Of a DNA stretch of 64,000 bases, positions 5,730 to 57,486 are shown piece by piece. Numbering within the stretch: position 1 is the stretch's first letter; every line of letters begins with the position of its first letter. Source of the DNA: Pseudomonadota bacterium (GTDB lineage: Bacteria; Myxococcota_A; Polyangia; JAAYKL01); the NCBI GenBank assembly GCA_023229365.1, contig JALNZK010000002.1:254343-318342 (forward strand), given 5' to 3'. The notes under the pieces were generated by a model, which was not told the DNA's origin, searched no databases, and saw only the letters and a program-made list of their open reading frames with translations. The position numbers were made by a program, and so were the translations under genes.

Positions 5730-6035
5730 ATGAAGAAAAACAAATCGCCAGATCATTGCCCCATCTGTGGGCAATATATGGAAGTAATCTGTTCTGGGTT
5801 TCAGCGGCACCCTTTTGTGGATGGTCGATGTTATGAAAACATTTGCCACATATGTTTTTCTGCTCCTTGCACCTGTCGTTTTGACGAAGGTGTGATGTGG
5901 AAACATTATGATTATGAGGATCAAGAACTGCATACCGCTGAGGAAATGATGCGGTTTGGGTTCACAAAAGCCGAAGTAGCCATTTCCTTAAAAGCAGTAA
6001 AATTGGCTATAAAAAATGGTAAGCACCCTAAATAG
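5730..6035 (+). CDS. Cys-rich small zinc-binding protein (hypothetical)
   Basis: CPICGQ...C...C...C...CTC cysteine pattern. Starts directly after the RNR stop. Confidence 0.4.
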   Translation: MKKNKSPDHCPICGQYMEVICSGFQRHPFVDGRCYENICHICFSAPCTCRFDEGVMWKHYDYEDQELHTAEEMMRFGFTKAEVAISLKAVKLAIKNGKHPK

Positions 6036-18899: not shown

Positions 18900-19127
18900 A
18901 TGAAGTATAATCCATTAGAACAATTAGAAACAGCCGAGTTAATAGAAAAGTTAAAAAGTTGGGGTTATGGGGACTTAATAAAAGTTCTCTTAGAAGATGC
19001 AGAGGTCTATACTAAAAAGGGCAGATTGAACAAATCAGGTGCTTGCCGAGTTTTGGACTGGAAAAGCAAACAACTTGAAGATGCCCTTGCAGCCTGTAAA
19101 CAAATACTGCACAACGAATTTGATTAG
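18900..19127 (+). CDS. Hypothetical small protein
   Basis: ORF following the gp55-like gene. No motif. Confidence 0.3.
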   Translation: MKYNPLEQLETAELIEKLKSWGYGDLIKVLLEDAEVYTKKGRLNKSGACRVLDWKSKQLEDALAACKQILHNEFD

Positions 19128-19630
19128 TTATTGATATAGGCCCTGTCATATCGAAGCGACAGATCGCAGGTACAATATTCTGATGTACCCATATCTAAAT
19201 CTCCGAATTCTATAGATTCTGGCCATACATTCTCTAGTATCCATTCTTCTACAACGCTTCCGCACCCATCTAACATTTCTAAAGTAACTCTGGGAATTAC
19301 AAATGCAGTTGATGGGTCTTTCCAAGTTGCATCATTTTGTGGATCATATTGTTTTTTAAGCCATTCGAAAACTGGATGTTTGTTTTTTTTGAGATCAAAT
19401 AATGTTAGAGTAATCGGCTTCCAGTCTGGTTTGGTGGGTCGATAAATTATCTCATTCAGATGTTGTATTTCCATTGTCTTAAAACTAAGACCAGGACGTG
19501 ATGCCTTAGATGGCGGCAAACAATTAGTGCCGGAAGCAGATATGTTTTCAATTTTCAGAAGCCATCTGAATTTTTGTTTATAACAAGTTGTTGGCTTTTC
19601 AAGACCAAACTGAAGACCCATTAAACCCAT
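19124..19630 (-). CDS. Contractile tail tube protein (gp19-like), paralog 2
   Basis: KFRWLLKIENIS...WKPITLTLFD pattern shared with the adjacent paralog and gp19-family tube proteins. Adjacent to the sheath gene. Confidence 0.55.
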   Translation of the reverse strand: MGLMGLQFGLEKPTTCYKQKFRWLLKIENISASGTNCLPPSKASRPGLSFKTMEIQHLNEIIYRPTKPDWKPITLTLFDLKKNKHPVFEWLKKQYDPQNDATWKDPSTAFVIPRVTLEMLDGCGSVVEEWILENVWPESIEFGDLDMGTSEYCTCDLSLRYDRAYINN

Positions 19631-19710: not shown

Positions 19711-20268
19711 TTATTCTTGGCAATCCAAGCAACCGCAGCTACCCTGTTGAACTGGGCAACGGCTTTCGTATTTGACGTTTGTATATCGAAGCGTAAGTTT
19801 CACTTCGCAAATGTCATTACTATCCATTGCCAAATCCCCGAAATCGATAGCTTTGGGCCAAACGGCATCCAGTGTCCATGTTTCCATGTCGTTTCCGCAA
19901 CCATCATACAAGACTAGTGTAGCAACACCCTTGTATTTTTGGAGCTTGGAGTTTTGTTGCAACTCAACTGGTTTCGTAAAGTCGTAAGTTGCAGTAAGCC
20001 ATCGGAACAAAGTTCCAATTTCCGTACTGTTGCAATCATAATACGTTACTTCTAATGGTTGCCAAGTGCCCTTGCCAGGAATCCATGTTTTAGCATTGAG
20101 GAAGTTCACTTCTGTTTCTTCAATGTCTAAATTAGGTCTAGCTGCTGTCTTAACAAAGTGATAGTCGATATCGCCGCACTCTGTTTTTAGCTTAAAAGTC
20201 CATCGAAACTTCCTTTTAAACACTCTAGTATCAAGGCCAATTGGACCTAAACCCATTGGTATACCCAT
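19711..20268 (-). CDS. Contractile tail tube protein (gp19-like), paralog 1
   Basis: RKFRWTFKLKTEC...WQPLEVTYYD...WPKAIDFGDL. Immediately downstream of the sheath. Confidence 0.55.
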   Translation of the reverse strand: MGIPMGLGPIGLDTRVFKRKFRWTFKLKTECGDIDYHFVKTAARPNLDIEETEVNFLNAKTWIPGKGTWQPLEVTYYDCNSTEIGTLFRWLTATYDFTKPVELQQNSKLQKYKGVATLVLYDGCGNDMETWTLDAVWPKAIDFGDLAMDSNDICEVKLTLRYTNVKYESRCPVQQGSCGCLDCQE

Positions 20269-38094: not shown

Positions 38095-39267
38095 CTAAGC
38101 ATCCAAAGGTGTTCCATAATGTGTCCATCGGGCCACTCGCAAAGCGTCTTTGTCACCAACAGCTTTTCCGCCGTCTTCGCTCAGTTTCACTACGGGAATG
38201 CCGTTTAGAGCCCACATTTTGATAACCATATTCAATGGTTTTAAATCGCCATCAAAATCATTGGTGAAATGAGTGCCAATGCCAAAGCTGCATCGGATGC
38301 CCAATTCATCACAATAATGCTTGATTTCTACTGCTTTATCAGCATTTAAATTATCTGAAAAAATCAGCGTCTTGGTGGCTGGATCGATTTTCAGACCTTG
38401 GTAATGTGCAACCAATTGATCGGTAAACTTGAATGGACAACCACTATCATGCCGTGCTCCATCCCACAGGCGTGCATGAAATGGTCCGAAATCTTCCAAA
38501 AAAGACTTCAGCCCATAGGTGTCGGTAAGCACAATCCCAAGCTGAGCATTGTATACTTTCACCCAAGCATCCATCGCTGCCAGATTAGCATGACGCAAGC
38601 TGCCCAAAACACTGTGGGCTTGAACCCACTCATGAGCCTGAGTGCCTATTGGCTTTGTTTTGTATTTCATCGCAAAATAGGGATTACTGGTGCCGACAAA
38701 AAAGCCTTTGGTGTTTTTGCAAAATTCTTCAACCACCAAACCCTGGGCATCAGCACTTCGTCTTCGACGGGTGCCAAAATCAGCAAAATGACACCGCTCA
38801 GATTCCAAAATAGCCAATTTATTTTGGGCTCTTTCTCGTTGTCCATTGTAATCCCAATTTTTATTATGGAAATACAATTCACTTATCAGTGCCATCAAAG
38901 GCACTTCCCACATCACAGTACGGTGCCAAGAACCTTTAATATGAATGTGGAGTTGTCCTGATTCTTGCCAAATTTCTACTTCTTGGGGGTTGTAGCGATA
39001 ATTTCGCAAATATTCAATGTAGGCTGGCTTGACAAAAGGACAGGACTGTTGCAACCAAGTGGCTTCCTGACCAGACAAAGACAGTGCGGGCATATATTGA
39101 ATGGATCGTCGTAATGTTTCAGCAAATGCTTCATCAAAAGTATCGCTGGGACGACGATTGAAAAATCTATATTCAGCCCGTGCAGAAGGATACAATTCCA
39201 GTATCGCCTGCTGCATTGTCAGTTTATAGAGATCGGTGTCTAAGATAGATGGCAAATTCATTATCAT
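38095..39267 (-). CDS. pncB: Nicotinate/nicotinamide phosphoribosyltransferase (PncB-like)
   Basis: N-terminal ILDTDLYKLTM (PncB LDTDxYKxTM). GTSN and FGIGTHF motifs. About 390 aa. Confidence 0.7.
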   Translation of the reverse strand: MIMNLPSILDTDLYKLTMQQAILELYPSARAEYRFFNRRPSDTFDEAFAETLRRSIQYMPALSLSGQEATWLQQSCPFVKPAYIEYLRNYRYNPQEVEIWQESGQLHIHIKGSWHRTVMWEVPLMALISELYFHNKNWDYNGQRERAQNKLAILESERCHFADFGTRRRRSADAQGLVVEEFCKNTKGFFVGTSNPYFAMKYKTKPIGTQAHEWVQAHSVLGSLRHANLAAMDAWVKVYNAQLGIVLTDTYGLKSFLEDFGPFHARLWDGARHDSGCPFKFTDQLVAHYQGLKIDPATKTLIFSDNLNADKAVEIKHYCDELGIRCSFGIGTHFTNDFDGDLKPLNMVIKMWALNGIPVVKLSEDGGKAVGDKDALRVARWTHYGTPLDA

Positions 39268-49288: not shown

Positions 49289-49411
49289 ATGGGTTGTGGA
49301 TGCGGTAAAAACAAGCCAGCATTACGAAAAATAACCAAGGAAGAAGAAGCCTCTATTAGAAGACGACAGGCTTTAATGGAAGCTCGAAAACAAAAAAAAA
49401 TATTTATATAA
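49289..49411 (+). CDS. Small basic protein, MGCGCG N-terminus (40 aa)
   Basis: ATG preceded by GGGGATAA. Paralog of the next gene. Not in the ORF track (under 60 aa). Confidence 0.4.
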   Translation: MGCGCGKNKPALRKITKEEEASIRRRQALMEARKQKKIFI

Positions 49412-49424
49412 ATGGAGGGTTATT

Positions 49425-49679
49425 ATGGGTTGTGGATGTGGTAGAAAAACTAGTGCTACTGGAATGAGAGTCACTGGATTAAGGGGAGTTGGAACAAATC
49501 CTAACCATACTCCAAGACAAGGGCGTATTGTTACGCCTCGCACCATGCCGCCCACTATGGTTCGACAGGCTCAAATGAAGGCAATGCAGGAAGCACAAAC
49601 ACCGCCAAATTATTCTCTTCAAAGAAGGGAAGTGGAAAGAAAGCGACGTTTGGCCATTTTAAAAGCTCAGGGTAAATGA
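49425..49679 (+). CDS. Small basic protein, MGCGCG N-terminus (84 aa)
   Basis: Preceded by GGAGGG. Same MGCGCG(K/R) N-terminus as the upstream paralog. Confidence 0.45.
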   Translation: MGCGCGRKTSATGMRVTGLRGVGTNPNHTPRQGRIVTPRTMPPTMVRQAQMKAMQEAQTPPNYSLQRREVERKRRLAILKAQGK

Positions 49680-50584: not shown

Positions 50585-51004
50585 ATGACATACCGAATTC
50601 AAACCAATCATAATTTCCACGGCGAAAATATATCAGAAAGGGACTGGAATACAATAAGTTCCAGTCGGGCTGGACATCAAGAATTTGATGACGATGAGTT
50701 AGCAATTGCCATCAAAACGTTCGAAAGAAACGCAAATATGGCAAGAATGATTTGGCCAATGCGATTAATTGATTCAAATGGCCAAATTCTAAGATATTAC
50801 AATCCAGAATTAGACGAATGGCTTCCAGGCCCTCGGGGAAGACTGGAAGAAAAGGCTTACTATATTTGGGAAAAGATTGGTGCCACTGATGTTGAATGTT
50901 GGTTCAAAGCCAAGGAAGAGACAGAAAAAGAAACCAGTAATTTAAGCCAATTTTTCGGACATATGCCAAAATTCTCAGAACGTGGTTTGCTGGAACCAAA
51001 CTAA
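50585..51004 (+). CDS. Hypothetical protein
   Basis: ORF. Confidence 0.35.
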   Translation: MTYRIQTNHNFHGENISERDWNTISSSRAGHQEFDDDELAIAIKTFERNANMARMIWPMRLIDSNGQILRYYNPELDEWLPGPRGRLEEKAYYIWEKIGATDVECWFKAKEETEKETSNLSQFFGHMPKFSERGLLEPN

Positions 51005-51819
51005 GTATAAACAGCCGTTTGTCGCACTAATGGCGACATTGATCTTTTTCTTAGCCTTCGGCTTTTTTCTCTATCCAGTGCTTCTGCTTTGACCATCTGT
51101 GGGCTTGATGGCATTGGTTCTGGTTCTGGCTCGTCGTCATCATCGCCCCTTGGTTGATAAAAACGATCTATTGATTCTTTTACGAATTTAGCTATTTCAT
51201 AGGGCGTGTTGAGACGAGTATCCGACCAACCTTGTCCTTGCTCATCTGGACCGTCTGTGAATTCGCCTATACGCTCCATGTCATGACGAGGATCACCGGG
51301 GCTACTTACCGCAATGGGAAAGCCTTTGATCTCAGCAGATGTTTTATAATCCATTTCAGGTGCAGGCATCATACCAGGACGCCAACCTTCGAGGAATCCC
51401 ATAAAGCGAACTAAAGGATGTCCTTTTTTGGGGTCAAATTCAGTTACTTTTTCAAATGATATACTACGCTCATATTCTAGCTCTTTTTGATGTCTTTCCC
51501 AACTATTTGATGGACCCCAATATTTCGGACCACCAAAATATCCTTCAGGTGCCTCTGGTGGTTTTCCTGCCCATTCTGTCTTTTTAAAGCATTGAACGAA
51601 GAATTTGAGGTAATACTTATCCCCCTCCATACGAACATTACGCCCGGTCATTTCGCAAACGAGCCGCCATTGATAACGCAATGCAGGGACTTCGCTACGA
51701 CCGGACGATCCCATTTTCCAAGCCCAGTCACCACCCACTAGGTGTTGGACAGACAGCAAGACGTAGTTTGGAATTTCCACCACTTTTGCTTCATTAATCA
51801 TCCATTCCTTGAAATTCAT
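51001..51819 (-). CDS. CTS-leader protein (candidate internal head protein), 272 aa
   Basis: N-terminus MNFKEWMINE (I-x-E). Acidic DDDDEPEPEP tail. Confidence 0.45.
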   Translation of the reverse strand: MNFKEWMINEAKVVEIPNYVLLSVQHLVGGDWAWKMGSSGRSEVPALRYQWRLVCEMTGRNVRMEGDKYYLKFFVQCFKKTEWAGKPPEAPEGYFGGPKYWGPSNSWERHQKELEYERSISFEKVTEFDPKKGHPLVRFMGFLEGWRPGMMPAPEMDYKTSAEIKGFPIAVSSPGDPRHDMERIGEFTDGPDEQGQGWSDTRLNTPYEIAKFVKESIDRFYQPRGDDDDEPEPEPMPSSPQMVKAEALDREKSRRLRKRSMSPLVRQTAVYT

Positions 51820-52856
51820 TTTACCCGCTCCCCAGATTTCAATACCTTGGCTACCAACGCAGAGGGAACTTTGTATTCAAAGGTGGATTTCATTATATTG
51901 TATTCATACCATCTCTGAACACTTTCCTCAGATGTCATATTCTGCCTGCGTGTGACCATTATTGATTTGTTGCTTTTTTCTGCCTGTTCAATTGCTTTCC
52001 TGAGGGCTGGGCCATGCACTTTTATCACTTCTTCCATGCCTTTGAGACTGCCTACCATTACTTCAAATTTAGATGGATAAGCCCATTGCCAAGGATCATC
52101 TTTTCTCGGCTTACTGACTTTCACCATATAAGCAGTGGCTTTTGTGCCCTGAATTTGGACACGATCCCCTGGACGTAAGATAATGCCATTTTCCGTGGTG
52201 TAGCCAGGGGACATGCTTGAATCCAGGGTATAAACACATTGTTCTGGACGATAGACACAGATTTGATTGCCATCCAACAATGAGCCACGCATGCTTTTGC
52301 CCTTAAAATGCACAGCATCAAATTGTGATTTTAAAGCATTGGTCAAGTCCTCTGTTTCTTGCATCCATCTTTTTTCTAATTCTTCTTGATTCTTAAAGTC
52401 TCCTTTGGGCGGCATGTCATATCCATATTGCCTCCACCATTTCATCATGGTATTATTAGAACCAAAGTTTATTTCTTCAATACGAGGCGGGGTATGATCG
52501 GCACCACCGATGTAATAAGCCTTTAAGCCTTTGCCAGTGCCTACATTGAAGTTCTTGGCTATACCAAGCGATTTAGTGAAGTAAGTGCCCCAGCCAAGAA
52601 AATGAATCGGAGGCAATGTATCTCTAGCACCAAAATCCCCAGGATTGAATCCGTGTCTAACGTCCCCAGAGCGGGGAGGGGATTTGAAGAATTGAAAACC
52701 CTGATGTTGAATCAGTTGTCTTTTTTCATCTGTAGTGCCATGATAGACTGGCCCAAAGAACTGCAATTTCTCTGCATCTTCTGGGCTTACGTACTTCGGC
52801 AACATAAAAGGAAAATATTTTTGAATATCTTCCAACAACCACAGTCTAAATTCCAT
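51816..52856 (-). CDS. Candidate H-Y-E-clade ADP-ribosyltransferase with CTS-like leader
   Basis: N-terminus MEFRLWLLED (L-x-E). VYHGTTDEKRQLIQHQGF resembles diphtheria toxin YHGTKPGYVDSIQKGI and PARP WHGSRTTNFAGILSQGL. GTYFTKSLGIA resembles PARP GIYFADMVSKS. Confidence 0.4.
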   Translation of the reverse strand: MEFRLWLLEDIQKYFPFMLPKYVSPEDAEKLQFFGPVYHGTTDEKRQLIQHQGFQFFKSPPRSGDVRHGFNPGDFGARDTLPPIHFLGWGTYFTKSLGIAKNFNVGTGKGLKAYYIGGADHTPPRIEEINFGSNNTMMKWWRQYGYDMPPKGDFKNQEELEKRWMQETEDLTNALKSQFDAVHFKGKSMRGSLLDGNQICVYRPEQCVYTLDSSMSPGYTTENGIILRPGDRVQIQGTKATAYMVKVSKPRKDDPWQWAYPSKFEVMVGSLKGMEEVIKVHGPALRKAIEQAEKSNKSIMVTRRQNMTSEESVQRWYEYNIMKSTFEYKVPSALVAKVLKSGERVK

Positions 52857-52864
52857 AAAGATAT

Positions 52865-53623
52865 TTAGGGACTAGTCGGTTGTTTTAAACAAGCCTCTAT
52901 TAAATATTTGCCAATTTGAAATTGTCGCCTAGTCACGCAATGCCCAGCATCTTTTTCAATATCTGTGTAGATTTTGTACCCTTTGTTTTTCAGGGCAGTA
53001 AACATAGGGATGAAACGTTCTTGCCACTCAAAAATAAGATCATCCCTACTGTGTGCCAGAAAGAATGGGGTGTCAGGACAATTACATTGCGGCACAGCTT
53101 CTGGGTCCAAAATAGCCCCGTTGTGAGAAATCACACCAGCAAAGGGAGTTGGGCTCATTACAGCAGTCATAATAGCCATAACTGCCCCTGCTGAGTGCCC
53201 TACCAGCACAATTCTATTCCGTGGAATACCACGTTTGTTTTCAATGAGTTTCAACACTTCTTCTATCACAGCCATTGCTGGCATTACGCCTTTGACTGCC
53301 TCTTCTTGGTCGTTGATGCCATTGGGCATAGGATACCAAGAACGAATTGTGGGTGTTATTCCAACGATAAAAGATTTTACTCCTTGTCGTTTGTACGCAG
53401 AAGCTAATTCCTGCCCATGATTGCCACGCCCAGGCAAACAAAGCACACAAGAGTCATGATTCCACTTATTGTATTTAATCCAGCGTTTTTCCAAGGTGGG
53501 TGGATAAAATTCAGCACGGCTTTGCGGACGCCACAGATTGTGGAATCCCATGTCATTAGGCATGCTGTCAAATGGCTGCCCTCGTCCCAGCCATTGACTG
53601 GCATAATAGTGATATCTTGTCAT
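52865..53623 (-). CDS. Alpha/beta hydrolase (phospholipase/carboxylesterase-like)
   Basis: GHSAGA nucleophile elbow (GxSxG). Later Asp/His candidates. Confidence 0.5.
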   Translation of the reverse strand: MTRYHYYASQWLGRGQPFDSMPNDMGFHNLWRPQSRAEFYPPTLEKRWIKYNKWNHDSCVLCLPGRGNHGQELASAYKRQGVKSFIVGITPTIRSWYPMPNGINDQEEAVKGVMPAMAVIEEVLKLIENKRGIPRNRIVLVGHSAGAVMAIMTAVMSPTPFAGVISHNGAILDPEAVPQCNCPDTPFFLAHSRDDLIFEWQERFIPMFTALKNKGYKIYTDIEKDAGHCVTRRQFQIGKYLIEACLKQPTSP

Positions 53624-55728: not shown

Positions 55729-56524
55729 TGGAAACGACATTTCTTTTGCTTTGTCGGGCGGCACCATGAACACCAACCCAACTCAATCTTTGGGGGGGCA
55801 TCCGTCTGCCTATCCAATAACATCTGGCATGAATAATTTGTTTCCTAACTACACCTTAGCCCAGACAAATAGCGGCTACATAGACTATCGATGTATTTAT
55901 GTGTTTAATAATCATGCTCTCGATTCCATGTATGGAGTAACAGCCGGAATTGTCGCAGTTAGCGGTGGTGCCGTAGAATATTTTGGCACCCCGATAACCA
56001 CGGAGCAGCAGCAAATAGTAATCTCGGGAAACGTTACCGGAGGCTCATTCACGCTTTCTTATGATGCTTACACCACATCGGCAATTCCTTGGAGTCCTTT
56101 TACCAACACTTGGGCCGCCAGCATACAAAGTGCATTAAACAATTTGCCAGTTTTATCTGGGGTTGTGGTTTCCTATTCTGCGAGCCCTGGATTGACACGA
56201 TTTATACTTCTTTTCCAAGGATATGGCGATCACAAACAACATCCGTTGTTAGTGGCAACTAATAATTTAACGCCTGCTGGCATAACAACGACTGTATCTA
56301 AGGTTACAAACGGTGGGCCAATTAATAATATTGCTTCAACAATATCCCATGAAACCATAACACCTGCTGGCATTACTTTTGTGGGCACGGGCACTATTTT
56401 GGACATAGGGACATTAGGCCCAGGTGAAGGATTTCCTGTATGGATCAAAAGACATCTATTAGCGGGGACAGCGGCAAAATATAATGATGGTTTAAATTTA
56501 CAAGTTACTTGTAGTCCAATTTAG
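55721..56524 (+). CDS. Hypothetical Gly/Thr/Ser-rich beta-type protein (possible fibre/decoration)
   Basis: Composition only. Confidence 0.3.
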   Translation: MISGNDISFALSGGTMNTNPTQSLGGHPSAYPITSGMNNLFPNYTLAQTNSGYIDYRCIYVFNNHALDSMYGVTAGIVAVSGGAVEYFGTPITTEQQQIVISGNVTGGSFTLSYDAYTTSAIPWSPFTNTWAASIQSALNNLPVLSGVVVSYSASPGLTRFILLFQGYGDHKQHPLLVATNNLTPAGITTTVSKVTNGGPINNIASTISHETITPAGITFVGTGTILDIGTLGPGEGFPVWIKRHLLAGTAAKYNDGLNLQVTCSPI

Positions 56525-57486
56525 TGCAAATGTTCCAAAAGTTGCTGAGGATCAATTATTCCAAACCCTTGGTAAAAACTTTTATCTTTTAATTGATCTT
56601 TGATGGGGGTGGTATGATTCTTAAAAGCCTTATAATAATCTCTTACTGTTGTTAGCGGAAAGTTTAATTTTTTTTGCTTATGAGCCGATAACAATAGTGC
56701 TGCAATACCGGCTACCCACGGAGTGGCCATCGAAGTGCCAGAAAGCATAGCGTACCAGTTTTTGGGGACCGTAGAAAGAATTTTTTCGCCTGGGGCCATA
56801 AAATCTAAATTCTTACCAGTACAACTAAATTGTGATCTGTCAAGGTTTTCATCAATTGATCCAATAGCAATAGTTTCAGGATAAGCGGCAGGATAAAACA
56901 CATCCGATGTAAATCCAGAATTTCCAGCAGCCACAAATACTGGAATATTTCTTTTGTGTGCATATTGAATAGCTTTGCGAACTTGCTGAATAGGGTTAGG
57001 AGAGCCTAAAGACAAACAAATAATATCTGCACCATTATCAACAGCCCACCGAATACCATCGGCTACTATTCCATAACTACCAGAACCATATTTGTCCAAC
57101 ACCTTTATGGGCATTACTTTTGCTTTTTCCGCCACACCTATTCCACATTGTCCGCAAATAATACCCGCCACATGGGTGCCGTGACCAAGAACGCTATCAT
57201 CCCAAGGTTCTTTACCAGGACAAATGAAATTTTTTCCTGGCACTAAATTGTTTATAAGACATGGATGATCTAATTGACATCCACAATCCACGACAGCGAC
57301 CACAACTCCTTCGCCTGCACAGTGTTTCCATATTTCTGGTAAATTAAAAGCTGAAATTGACCATCCTGACTTTTCTTTTACATCAGCTAAAGTTAAAATT
57401 TCTTCCTTAATAATGGGAAATAATTTGAATTTATTTTCAAGCTTAGATTTTTTTTCCTCTTTTTTTACCTCTGGGTTTTCTGACAT
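56521..57486 (-). CDS. Subtilisin-like serine protease (peptidase S8)
   Basis: D motif VVVAVVDCG, H motif GHGTHVAGII, S motif LSGTSMATPWVAGIAALL. Confidence 0.7.
   Translation of the reverse strand: MSENPEVKKEEKKSKLENKFKLFPIIKEEILTLADVKEKSGWSISAFNLPEIWKHCAGEGVVVAVVDCGCQLDHPCLINNLVPGKNFICPGKEPWDDSVLGHGTHVAGIICGQCGIGVAEKAKVMPIKVLDKYGSGSYGIVADGIRWAVDNGADIICLSLGSPNPIQQVRKAIQYAHKRNIPVFVAAGNSGFTSDVFYPAAYPETIAIGSIDENLDRSQFSCTGKNLDFMAPGEKILSTVPKNWYAMLSGTSMATPWVAGIAALLLSAHKQKKLNFPLTTVRDYYKAFKNHTTPIKDQLKDKSFYQGFGIIDPQQLLEHLH

Follow-up and report, generated by a model that had tools for sequence, protein, structure and literature searches.

A predicted stand-alone H-Y-Q ADP-ribosyltransferase with a T4-like N-terminal leader in an uncultivated giant phage

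That phages package ADP-ribosyltransferases (ARTs) in their heads is an established idea (PMC5512222; PMC9503650), and packaging was inferred in those studies from fusions and gene neighbourhoods. The internal head proteins of phage T4 all dock to the core through a capsid-targeting sequence (CTS). In IPI, IPII and IPIII this sequence is MKTYQEFIAE and it is removed by a single cut, while T4 Alt is trimmed at ITE-6. Enzymes of NAD+ and ADP-ribose (ADPr), including Nudix enzymes, were reported as packaged in myovirus heads (PMC9503650). Polyvalent proteins were proposed as virion-delivered, and the phage family ART-PolyVal was described as H-Y-D (PMC5512222). The H-Y-[EDQ] clade was formally defined with Gln as an accepted third residue (PMC7955679). 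Here we describe a gene located in a 64,000-nucleotide stretch of contig JALNZK010000002.1 (positions 254,343 to 318,342; from now on the window). Its product is very probably a stand-alone ART and belongs to a subfamily of its own on the margin of phage ART-PolyVal, within the PARP/diphtheria-toxin-like H-Y-[EDQ] clade. The exact product of the open reading frame (ORF) is in the public record only under the entry MCK9458620.1 ('MAG: hypothetical protein'), from a contig of 340,072 bp. An earlier sequence-only reading of this DNA had given the gene boundaries exactly (51816-52856) and named no strand; we found the gene on the minus strand.

The sequence-only reading had proposed a structure model as a check. 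We obtained an AlphaFold model with a homologue alignment, and it was confident (predicted local distance difference test, pLDDT, 92.8; predicted template modelling score, pTM, 0.83). According to this model the protein has the split beta-sheet ART fold. The first twelve Foldseek matches in the PDB were all PARP4, PARP2, PARP1 or exotoxin A, and the best structural matches were PARP catalytic domains and diphtheria toxin or exotoxin A. The best matches in a library of viral structures were a MuF-ART fusion, entries named 'PolyVal ADP-ribosyltransferase' and an iridovirus PARP-like protein. The scores of the fold searches were modest, as expected of a divergent family. The helical regulatory domain and the long acceptor loop of PARP are both absent from the window protein. 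The leader is modelled as a helix at residues 3-14 with a lower pLDDT of 74-81. The C-terminal barrel comprises approximately residues 225-272 and a strand at 335-339, with the helical bundle (274-326) inserted; shorter homologues keep the barrel alone.

We compared the protein with known families. Pfam ART-PolyVal (PF18760) matched it with E 0.013. There were 53 metagenomic homologues, 13 of them with a precomputed PF18760 assignment. When 52 sequences were aligned (the window protein and 51 homologues), 32 of them matched ART-PolyVal at E <= 0.01 (best E 2.7e-7) and 12 matched Pfam PARP. An exhaustive profile search gave 190 family representatives at 50% clustering. The kinship that had been proposed with PARPs and toxins was therefore upheld by the ART fold and by a family that borders Pfam ART-PolyVal. 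Kinship with Tpt1/KptA, proposed in the same place, was rejected, as no search of the protein showed similarity. The protein did not match Alt-like families in Pfam and PHROG searches, and the R-S-E motifs of T4 Alt/VIP2 (Arg, Ser-x-Ser, Glu-x-Glu) were not found, the active site being H/Y/Q. PHROGs and NCBIfam searches with the window protein gave no match. The same was true of tblastn against 50,697 phage genomes, a set that holds no cultured relative of this lineage.

The window protein shares with ART-PolyVal (PF18760; 'N4-ART', Tox-ART-HYD2-like) the fold, the HG[TS] and G-x-Y-F-T motifs and a like predicted role as a virion-delivered host modifier. The C-terminal canonical copy in relative P0126 also has the same third motif, D-G-D-Q-[YI]-I-x-F-D-P. 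In contrast, the domain described here has approximately 185 aa against 140 positions of the Pfam model. The surplus consists of a loop (residues 55-82) and a helical insert (134-178, with invariant W140-W141). Further, the subfamily hidden Markov model (HMM) scarcely recognises canonical ART-PolyVal copies within the same giant proteins. The long loop, the helical insert and this poor cross-recognition fit a distinct subfamily. The window protein is its solo form, in which a leader precedes the ART domain and an SH3-like domain follows it, and it belongs to neither a giant nor a MuF fusion; in other phages the same domain makes up part of proteins that are 1,016-3,912 residues long. Four of these (1,667-3,198 residues) were scanned with Pfam and contained canonical ART-PolyVal and/or GNAT, Nudix, SprT-like, KptA and 2H/Acb1-like domains. 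The giant proteins that carry the subfamily domain are textbook polyvalent proteins.

The motifs of the active site are listed in Table 1. The sequence-only reading had placed an HG motif directly after the leader, followed by a GTYFTKS segment, and had named the protein a candidate H-Y-E enzyme. The first motif, VYHGTTDEKRQLIQHQGF, is present at residues 37-54, but 26 residues (11-36) intervene between it and the leader. The GTYFTKS segment was found at residues 90-96. The spacing that had been given, [YW]HG[ST]-x6-I-xx-G, was off by one at both gaps. The actual pattern, Y-H-G-T-x7-I-x3-G-F, equals the human PARP1 spacing, WHGS-x7-I-x3-GL. In an hhalign comparison with the human PARP1 catalytic sequence H39 was paired with H862, Y92 with Y896 and F103 with Y907; the alignment reached motifs I and II only, and not motif III. 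The HG[ST]-x7-I-x3-G spacing, the GxGxYF segment and an aromatic residue 11 positions further on are identical in the two proteins.

Conservation was counted in 195 family sequences aligned to the subfamily HMM, with denominators that vary by position. Motif I residues were kept almost throughout (H39 172/174, G40 173/174, I49 172/175), as were Y92 (176/177), F/Y103 (178/179), D195 (184/188) and Q198 (186/187). Position 103 was Y in 83 of the 179 non-gapped relatives and is F in the window protein. At position 197 we counted D in 127, N in 48 and E in 4 of 188 sequences; the window protein has N. The ART motifs are far above chance, and their constancy points to purifying selection on the site. 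H39 (in HGT), Y92 (in GxGxYFT) and F/Y103 together make up an NAD+-site signature. Comparison of the patterns LLYNEYIVY and LLDGNQICVY, together with the position at the start of a strand, leads us to infer that Q198 is the equivalent of PARP1 E988. The H-Y-E assignment was thus right for His and Tyr, which lie in the expected motifs, and wrong for Glu, in whose place Gln appears to stand. Since no Glu is conserved and Q198 falls on the E988 position, the sequence indicates an enzyme of the H-Y-Q (or H-Y-D..Q) type, not strict H-Y-E, inside the H-Y-[EDQ] clade. Gln in place of the catalytic Glu also sets the protein apart from PARPs, diphtheria toxin and exotoxin A, to which its sequence similarity is below the detection limit of PDB searches. 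As Gln replaces Glu, chain elongation would not be expected, and poly-ADP-ribosylation, known from PARPs, is not expected of the window protein.

The missing Glu could also mean that the ART fold is catalytically dead and that the protein binds or senses NAD+/ADPr, or has a structural role inside the head. PARP13 and TASOR are examples of proteins with inactive ART-like domains; on the other hand, Gln is accepted as the third residue of the clade (PMC7955679). We consider a dead enzyme very improbable, as the H, Y, F/Y, D and Q residues are each at least 98% kept in approximately 190 representatives. Pseudoenzymes usually lose such conservation of the active site. In addition, PARP1 E988Q retains mono-ADP-ribosylation, and H-Y-I/L PARPs are active. 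The near-invariance of five site residues among sequences that are 30-40% identical argues for an active enzyme.

We wanted to know how the leader of the window protein relates to other ORFs of the window. A related leader opens ten ORFs, whose proteins are otherwise unrelated, with the consensus M-x-F-[KR]-x-[WF]-[LIM]-x-x-E. This agrees with the description of the protein as leader-tagged, and the leader resembles the T4 CTS. Among 78 non-overlapping ORFs, 7 start with the pattern F-[KR]-x-[FW] at residue 3 or 4, whereas its internal frequency predicts 0.054 (P ~2e-13); although the pattern was picked after seeing the data, the excess is very large and the leader is beyond chance. One copy, MKTYKEFAEQ (ORF 29079), is identical to the T4 CTS in 7 of 10 residues when aligned from the N-terminus. 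An [LI]-x-E site ends at residues 8-12 in six of the ten leader ORFs, but in just 1 of the 68 ORFs without a leader. Of the four leader ORFs that lack it, three have F/W-x-E at the same place, and ORF 55429 has neither. In the window ART the hydrophobic-x-Glu site is L7-L8-E9. The leaders are conserved as protein and not as DNA, as they differ by synonymous and K/R changes; the DNA is A/T-rich. We rejected a signal peptide, since the leader has 9-12 residues, is charged and amphipathic and lacks a hydrophobic core.

Two of the other leader-tagged ORFs encode predicted NAD+/ADPr enzymes. ORF 6039 has a weak PARP match and belongs to a different ART family; it was tried as a paralogue of the window ART and rejected, as the two have no detectable similarity. 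In ORF 29384 a Nudix domain occupies the C-terminal part (PHROG 1198, E 4.7e-16; NudE and MutT matched weakly). The presence of a Nudix hydrolase and a second ART-like protein among the leader-tagged ORFs fits the reported head packaging of such enzymes (PMC9503650). Homologues of the window ART in other phages have the same or a different leader, and in nearly all of them an [LI]-x-E site lies 9-16 residues in from the N-terminus, ahead of the conserved domain. One of them is encoded on a 155-kb T4-like contig, where a T4 Gp23-type capsid gene is found 8 kb away and at least 7 genes around the homologue bear the same leader. A homologue on a 270-kb contig (L005) has a different leader, MKILLELQQIINE, and nearby genes seem to share its style. 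A solo ArdC-N + MPTase-PolyVal protein is encoded 4 kb upstream of it (L005 5406-6293). A second shared N-terminal motif was seen in the window, where two adjacent plus-strand ORFs (49289-49411 and 49425-49679; 40 and 84 aa) both begin with MGCGCG, which resembles an acylation site.

The phage of the window is a T4-superfamily myovirus. It encodes a sheath, a T4 baseplate protein and a sheath stabiliser, and the sheath distantly matches thousands of T4-like phages. With a genome of at least 340 kb, it is a giant T4-like phage that is uncultivated. As in the T4 internal proteins, leaders of approximately 10 aromatic-rich residues that end in hydrophobic-x-Glu stand here on unrelated proteins of one phage. 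The putative targeting leader of this phage tags enzymes (two ART-like and one Nudix) besides small proteins. The enrichment of the leader, its likeness to the T4 CTS and the Gp23-linked relative with the same leader make packaging of the window ART in the head, and its injection, likely by analogy. The proposed logic is that of T4 Alt, an NAD+-dependent head ART that loses an N-terminal targeting peptide after Glu to the prohead protease and is injected with the DNA. Unlike the window protein, Alt belongs to the R-S-E (Alt/VIP2) clade and its active site is not homologous, so that it is a functional analogue only. Alt has 68 kDa, it is trimmed at the C-terminus also, and its target is the RNA polymerase alpha subunit.

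We propose the following course of events. The window ART would be made late in infection. Its leader would serve in the manner of the T4 CTS and attach the protein to the scaffolding core inside the prohead; it would then be cut off after L-L-E9 by a gp21-type prohead protease, so that the mature form would start at D10 (DIQKYFPFMLPK). The mature basic enzyme of 38.7 kDa would remain beside the DNA in the head and enter the next host by injection. There it would perform NAD+-dependent mono-ADP-ribosylation, with a host macromolecule, most probably a protein, as the acceptor, the acid function supplied by D195 or by a substrate carboxylate and the target selected by the basic SH3/KOW-like C-terminal domain. 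T4 Alt provides the parallel, with an unrelated ART of the R-S-E type. Taken as a whole, we rate this chain as slightly better than an even chance.

Several observations weigh against it. The window protein scores below the PF18760 gathering threshold (16.7 vs 31.2 bits), and PDB sequence searches with the protein and with the family profile returned chance matches only (MobA, riboflavin reductase, TXNDC6). No conserved catalytic Glu was found in or near motif III among the 195 family sequences. A hand alignment with the canonical copies in relatives P0063 and P0126 placed the Asp column of H-Y-D most likely at position 197, and the published 'D' appears to correspond to N197 here. The leader pattern was chosen post hoc, as noted above. 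Finally, genes for a prohead protease, scaffold or capsid were found neither in the window nor within 10 kb beyond its left and 2.6 kb beyond its right end.

This last result also favours a reading in which the ART is active inside the cell that makes it and stays out of the head. The leader would then be, for example, an element of translation initiation or of the mRNA, a tag for chaperones or for degradation, or a relic of cassette recombination. The A/T-rich DNA of the leaders and the operon partners, which are an amidoligase and an esterase and not structural genes, fit such a reading, and T4 ModA and ModB are ARTs that are not packaged (PMC5512222). Nevertheless, the leader is kept as amino acids through synonymous and K/R changes, and a Glu-ended site follows it at a fixed distance. 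One copy shares 7 of 10 residues with an experimentally defined T4 CTS, and homologues of other phage lineages swap the leader and keep [LI]-x-E. We therefore find it unlikely that the protein stays in the producing cell.

The choice of substrate was considered separately. A packaged and injected enzyme could act on a non-protein substrate, either by ADP-ribosylation of DNA or RNA in a manner like that of DarT-type and other H-Y-[EDQ] enzymes, or by hydrolysis of NAD+ or of a signal derived from it. ART-PolyVal has been placed together with the Tox-ART-HYD2 clade and an ART class of toxin-antitoxin systems, whereas those who defined the family reason from its kinship with PARPs and with toxins of the diphtheria-toxin type that it targets proteins (PMC5512222). 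The C-terminal domain is basic (pI 9.8) and resembles barrels of the KOW/Tudor/PWWP type, which often bind nucleic acids, and Gln in place of Glu is atypical of protein-modifying toxins. However, no link of the window protein to DNA emerged in this analysis, and a phage NAPRTase for NAD+ salvage is ill-suited to a wasteful NADase. On balance a non-protein substrate seems rather doubtful to us, and modification of a protein remains the reading that we prefer.

Table 1. Positions of the ART gene, its parts and the leader-tagged ORFs in the window (pI, isoelectric point).
Feature	Position	Strand	Description
ART ORF	51816..52856	minus	ATG start; 346 aa, 39.9 kDa, pI 9.2; begins MEFRLWLLED
N-terminal leader MEFRLWLLE, residues 1-9	52830..52856	minus	ends L-L-E; putative capsid-targeting peptide; leader ORF with start at 52856
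ART domain (predicted), approximately residues 31-212	52221..52766	minus	
Motif I VYHGTTDEKRQLIQHQGF, residues 37-54	52695..52748	minus	H39 at the end of strand 1; H39-G40-T41 after strand 34-38
Motif II GWGTYFTKS, residues 88-96	52569..52595	minus	Y92 on strand 2 (strand 91-94); F103 in the helix that follows
Motif III LLDGNQICVY, residues 193-202	52251..52280	minus	D195 and Q198 near-invariant; Q198 opens strand 198-201
Basic C-terminal region, pI 9.8	51819..52193	minus	predicted SH3/KOW/Tudor-like beta-barrel with inserted helical bundle
CTAAATA	52862..52868	minus	five bases upstream of the ART ATG; overlaps stop codon of upstream esterase gene
272-aa gene downstream of ART	51001..51819	minus	overlaps ART gene by ATGA; leader MNFKEWMINE (leader ORF with start at 51819); C-terminal tail ...ALDREKSRRLRKRSMSPLVRQTAVYT
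Leader ORF, 330 aa	6039..7031	plus	MDFKGFLLSE; weak PARP match
Leader ORF, 161 aa	7040..7525	plus	MEFKYFILNE
Leader ORF, 151 aa	28627..29082	plus	MNFKEFITE
Leader ORF, 102 aa	29079..29387	plus	MKTYKEFAEQ
Leader ORF, Nudix hydrolase, 281 aa	29384..30229	plus	MKFLEWAEQ
Leader ORF, 70 aa	45997..46209	minus	MKTFIKWCEE
Leader ORF, 200 aa	49760..50362	plus	MLTFKEWKTLNE; acidic, Lys-rich; GTG start
Leader ORF	start 55429		MMGTFREFLG

The ART gene is the fourth in a tight run of minus-strand genes, in the order 249-aa protein, phiEco32-type COOH-NH2 ligase, Abhydrolase_2 esterase, ART and leader-tagged 272-aa protein. The order ligase-esterase-ART is also kept in one related phage. In a related phage a 257-aa gene upstream of the ART was tried as the counterpart of the 272-aa neighbour and was rejected for lack of similarity (BLASTP E 7.9); its Cys-rich product looks like an HNH-type endonuclease. 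The 272-aa neighbour matched no known domain in Pfam and further family searches and has only ten close homologues. Its tail, ALDREKSRRLRKRSMSPLVRQTAVYT (51001-51084, minus strand), is missing from some of these homologues, and in relatives P0002 and P0004 it is the ART that ends in this tail. The occurrence of one portable tail on the neighbour here and on the ART in those relatives suggests the insertion of a leader-tagged cassette, which would have parted the ART body from its C-terminal tail.

The sequence CCCTAAATA lies 4-5 bases upstream of the ATG in both ART-like genes (6028-6034, plus strand; 52862-52868, minus strand), so that ORF 6039 shares the CCCTAAATA-N4-ATG arrangement of the ART gene. 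It resembles the late promoter of T4, TATAAATA. There are 14 copies of CCCTAAATA in the window, without clear enrichment. If it acts as a T4-type late promoter, both ART-like genes would have an almost leaderless transcript. Approximately 4 kb from the ART gene there is a gene for a subtilisin-type S8 peptidase (56521-57486, minus strand, E 3.4e-52), which is syntenic in a related phage (L002 2413-3381).

Other genes of the window were also identified, all on the minus strand. A full-length nicotinate phosphoribosyltransferase (NAPRTase; 38095-39267, E 3e-64) points to NAD+ salvage encoded by the phage, whose genome also has the two ART-like genes and the leader-tagged Nudix hydrolase. An ORF of 817 aa (30774-33227) matched the Major Vault Protein shoulder (PF11978, E 3.9e-24) and the vault repeat (PF17795, E 1.1e-9); a gene like those of eukaryotic-type vault proteins is unusual in a phage. 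An ORF of 571 aa (33788-35503) had a weak protein-kinase match (PF00069, E 0.0055), and truncated kinases are another typical module of polyvalent proteins. Two paralogous ORFs just downstream of the sheath gene (19124-19630 and 19711-20268) share the N-terminal MG..G...FKRKFRW and are probably tail tube paralogues.

In summary, the prediction of the window ART is solid and testable, and it is a variation on a known theme. We found no description of a CTS-tagged solo H-Y-Q ART. A broader joint reading can be put forward, and we regard it as a long shot. The T4-like leader (M-x-F-K-x-W...L-x-E) would mark an injected 'NAD+/ADP-ribose toolkit' of two ARTs, a Nudix hydrolase and several unknown proteins in T4-superfamily jumbo phages that form a large uncultivated clade. 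The H-Y-Q ART would be a new enzyme class, in which the D195...Q198 pair has a chemistry or choice of target unseen in PARPs and toxins, for example nucleic-acid modification or the disabling of host defence. The leader and the portable tail would be recombination cassettes that shuffle effectors between phages.

If our reading is true, the head-packaged ARTs of T4-type phages extend beyond the R-S-E enzyme Alt to a PARP-like H-Y-Q enzyme. The leader and the hydrophobic-x-Glu site would together give a simple sequence rule by which the proteins that uncultivated jumbo phages inject could be predicted. With its invariant Gln and Asp, the family offers a tidy test case for ART action without a catalytic Glu. 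Approximately 190 family representatives, which are now annotated as hypothetical, would become candidate enzymes of early host takeover or anti-defence.

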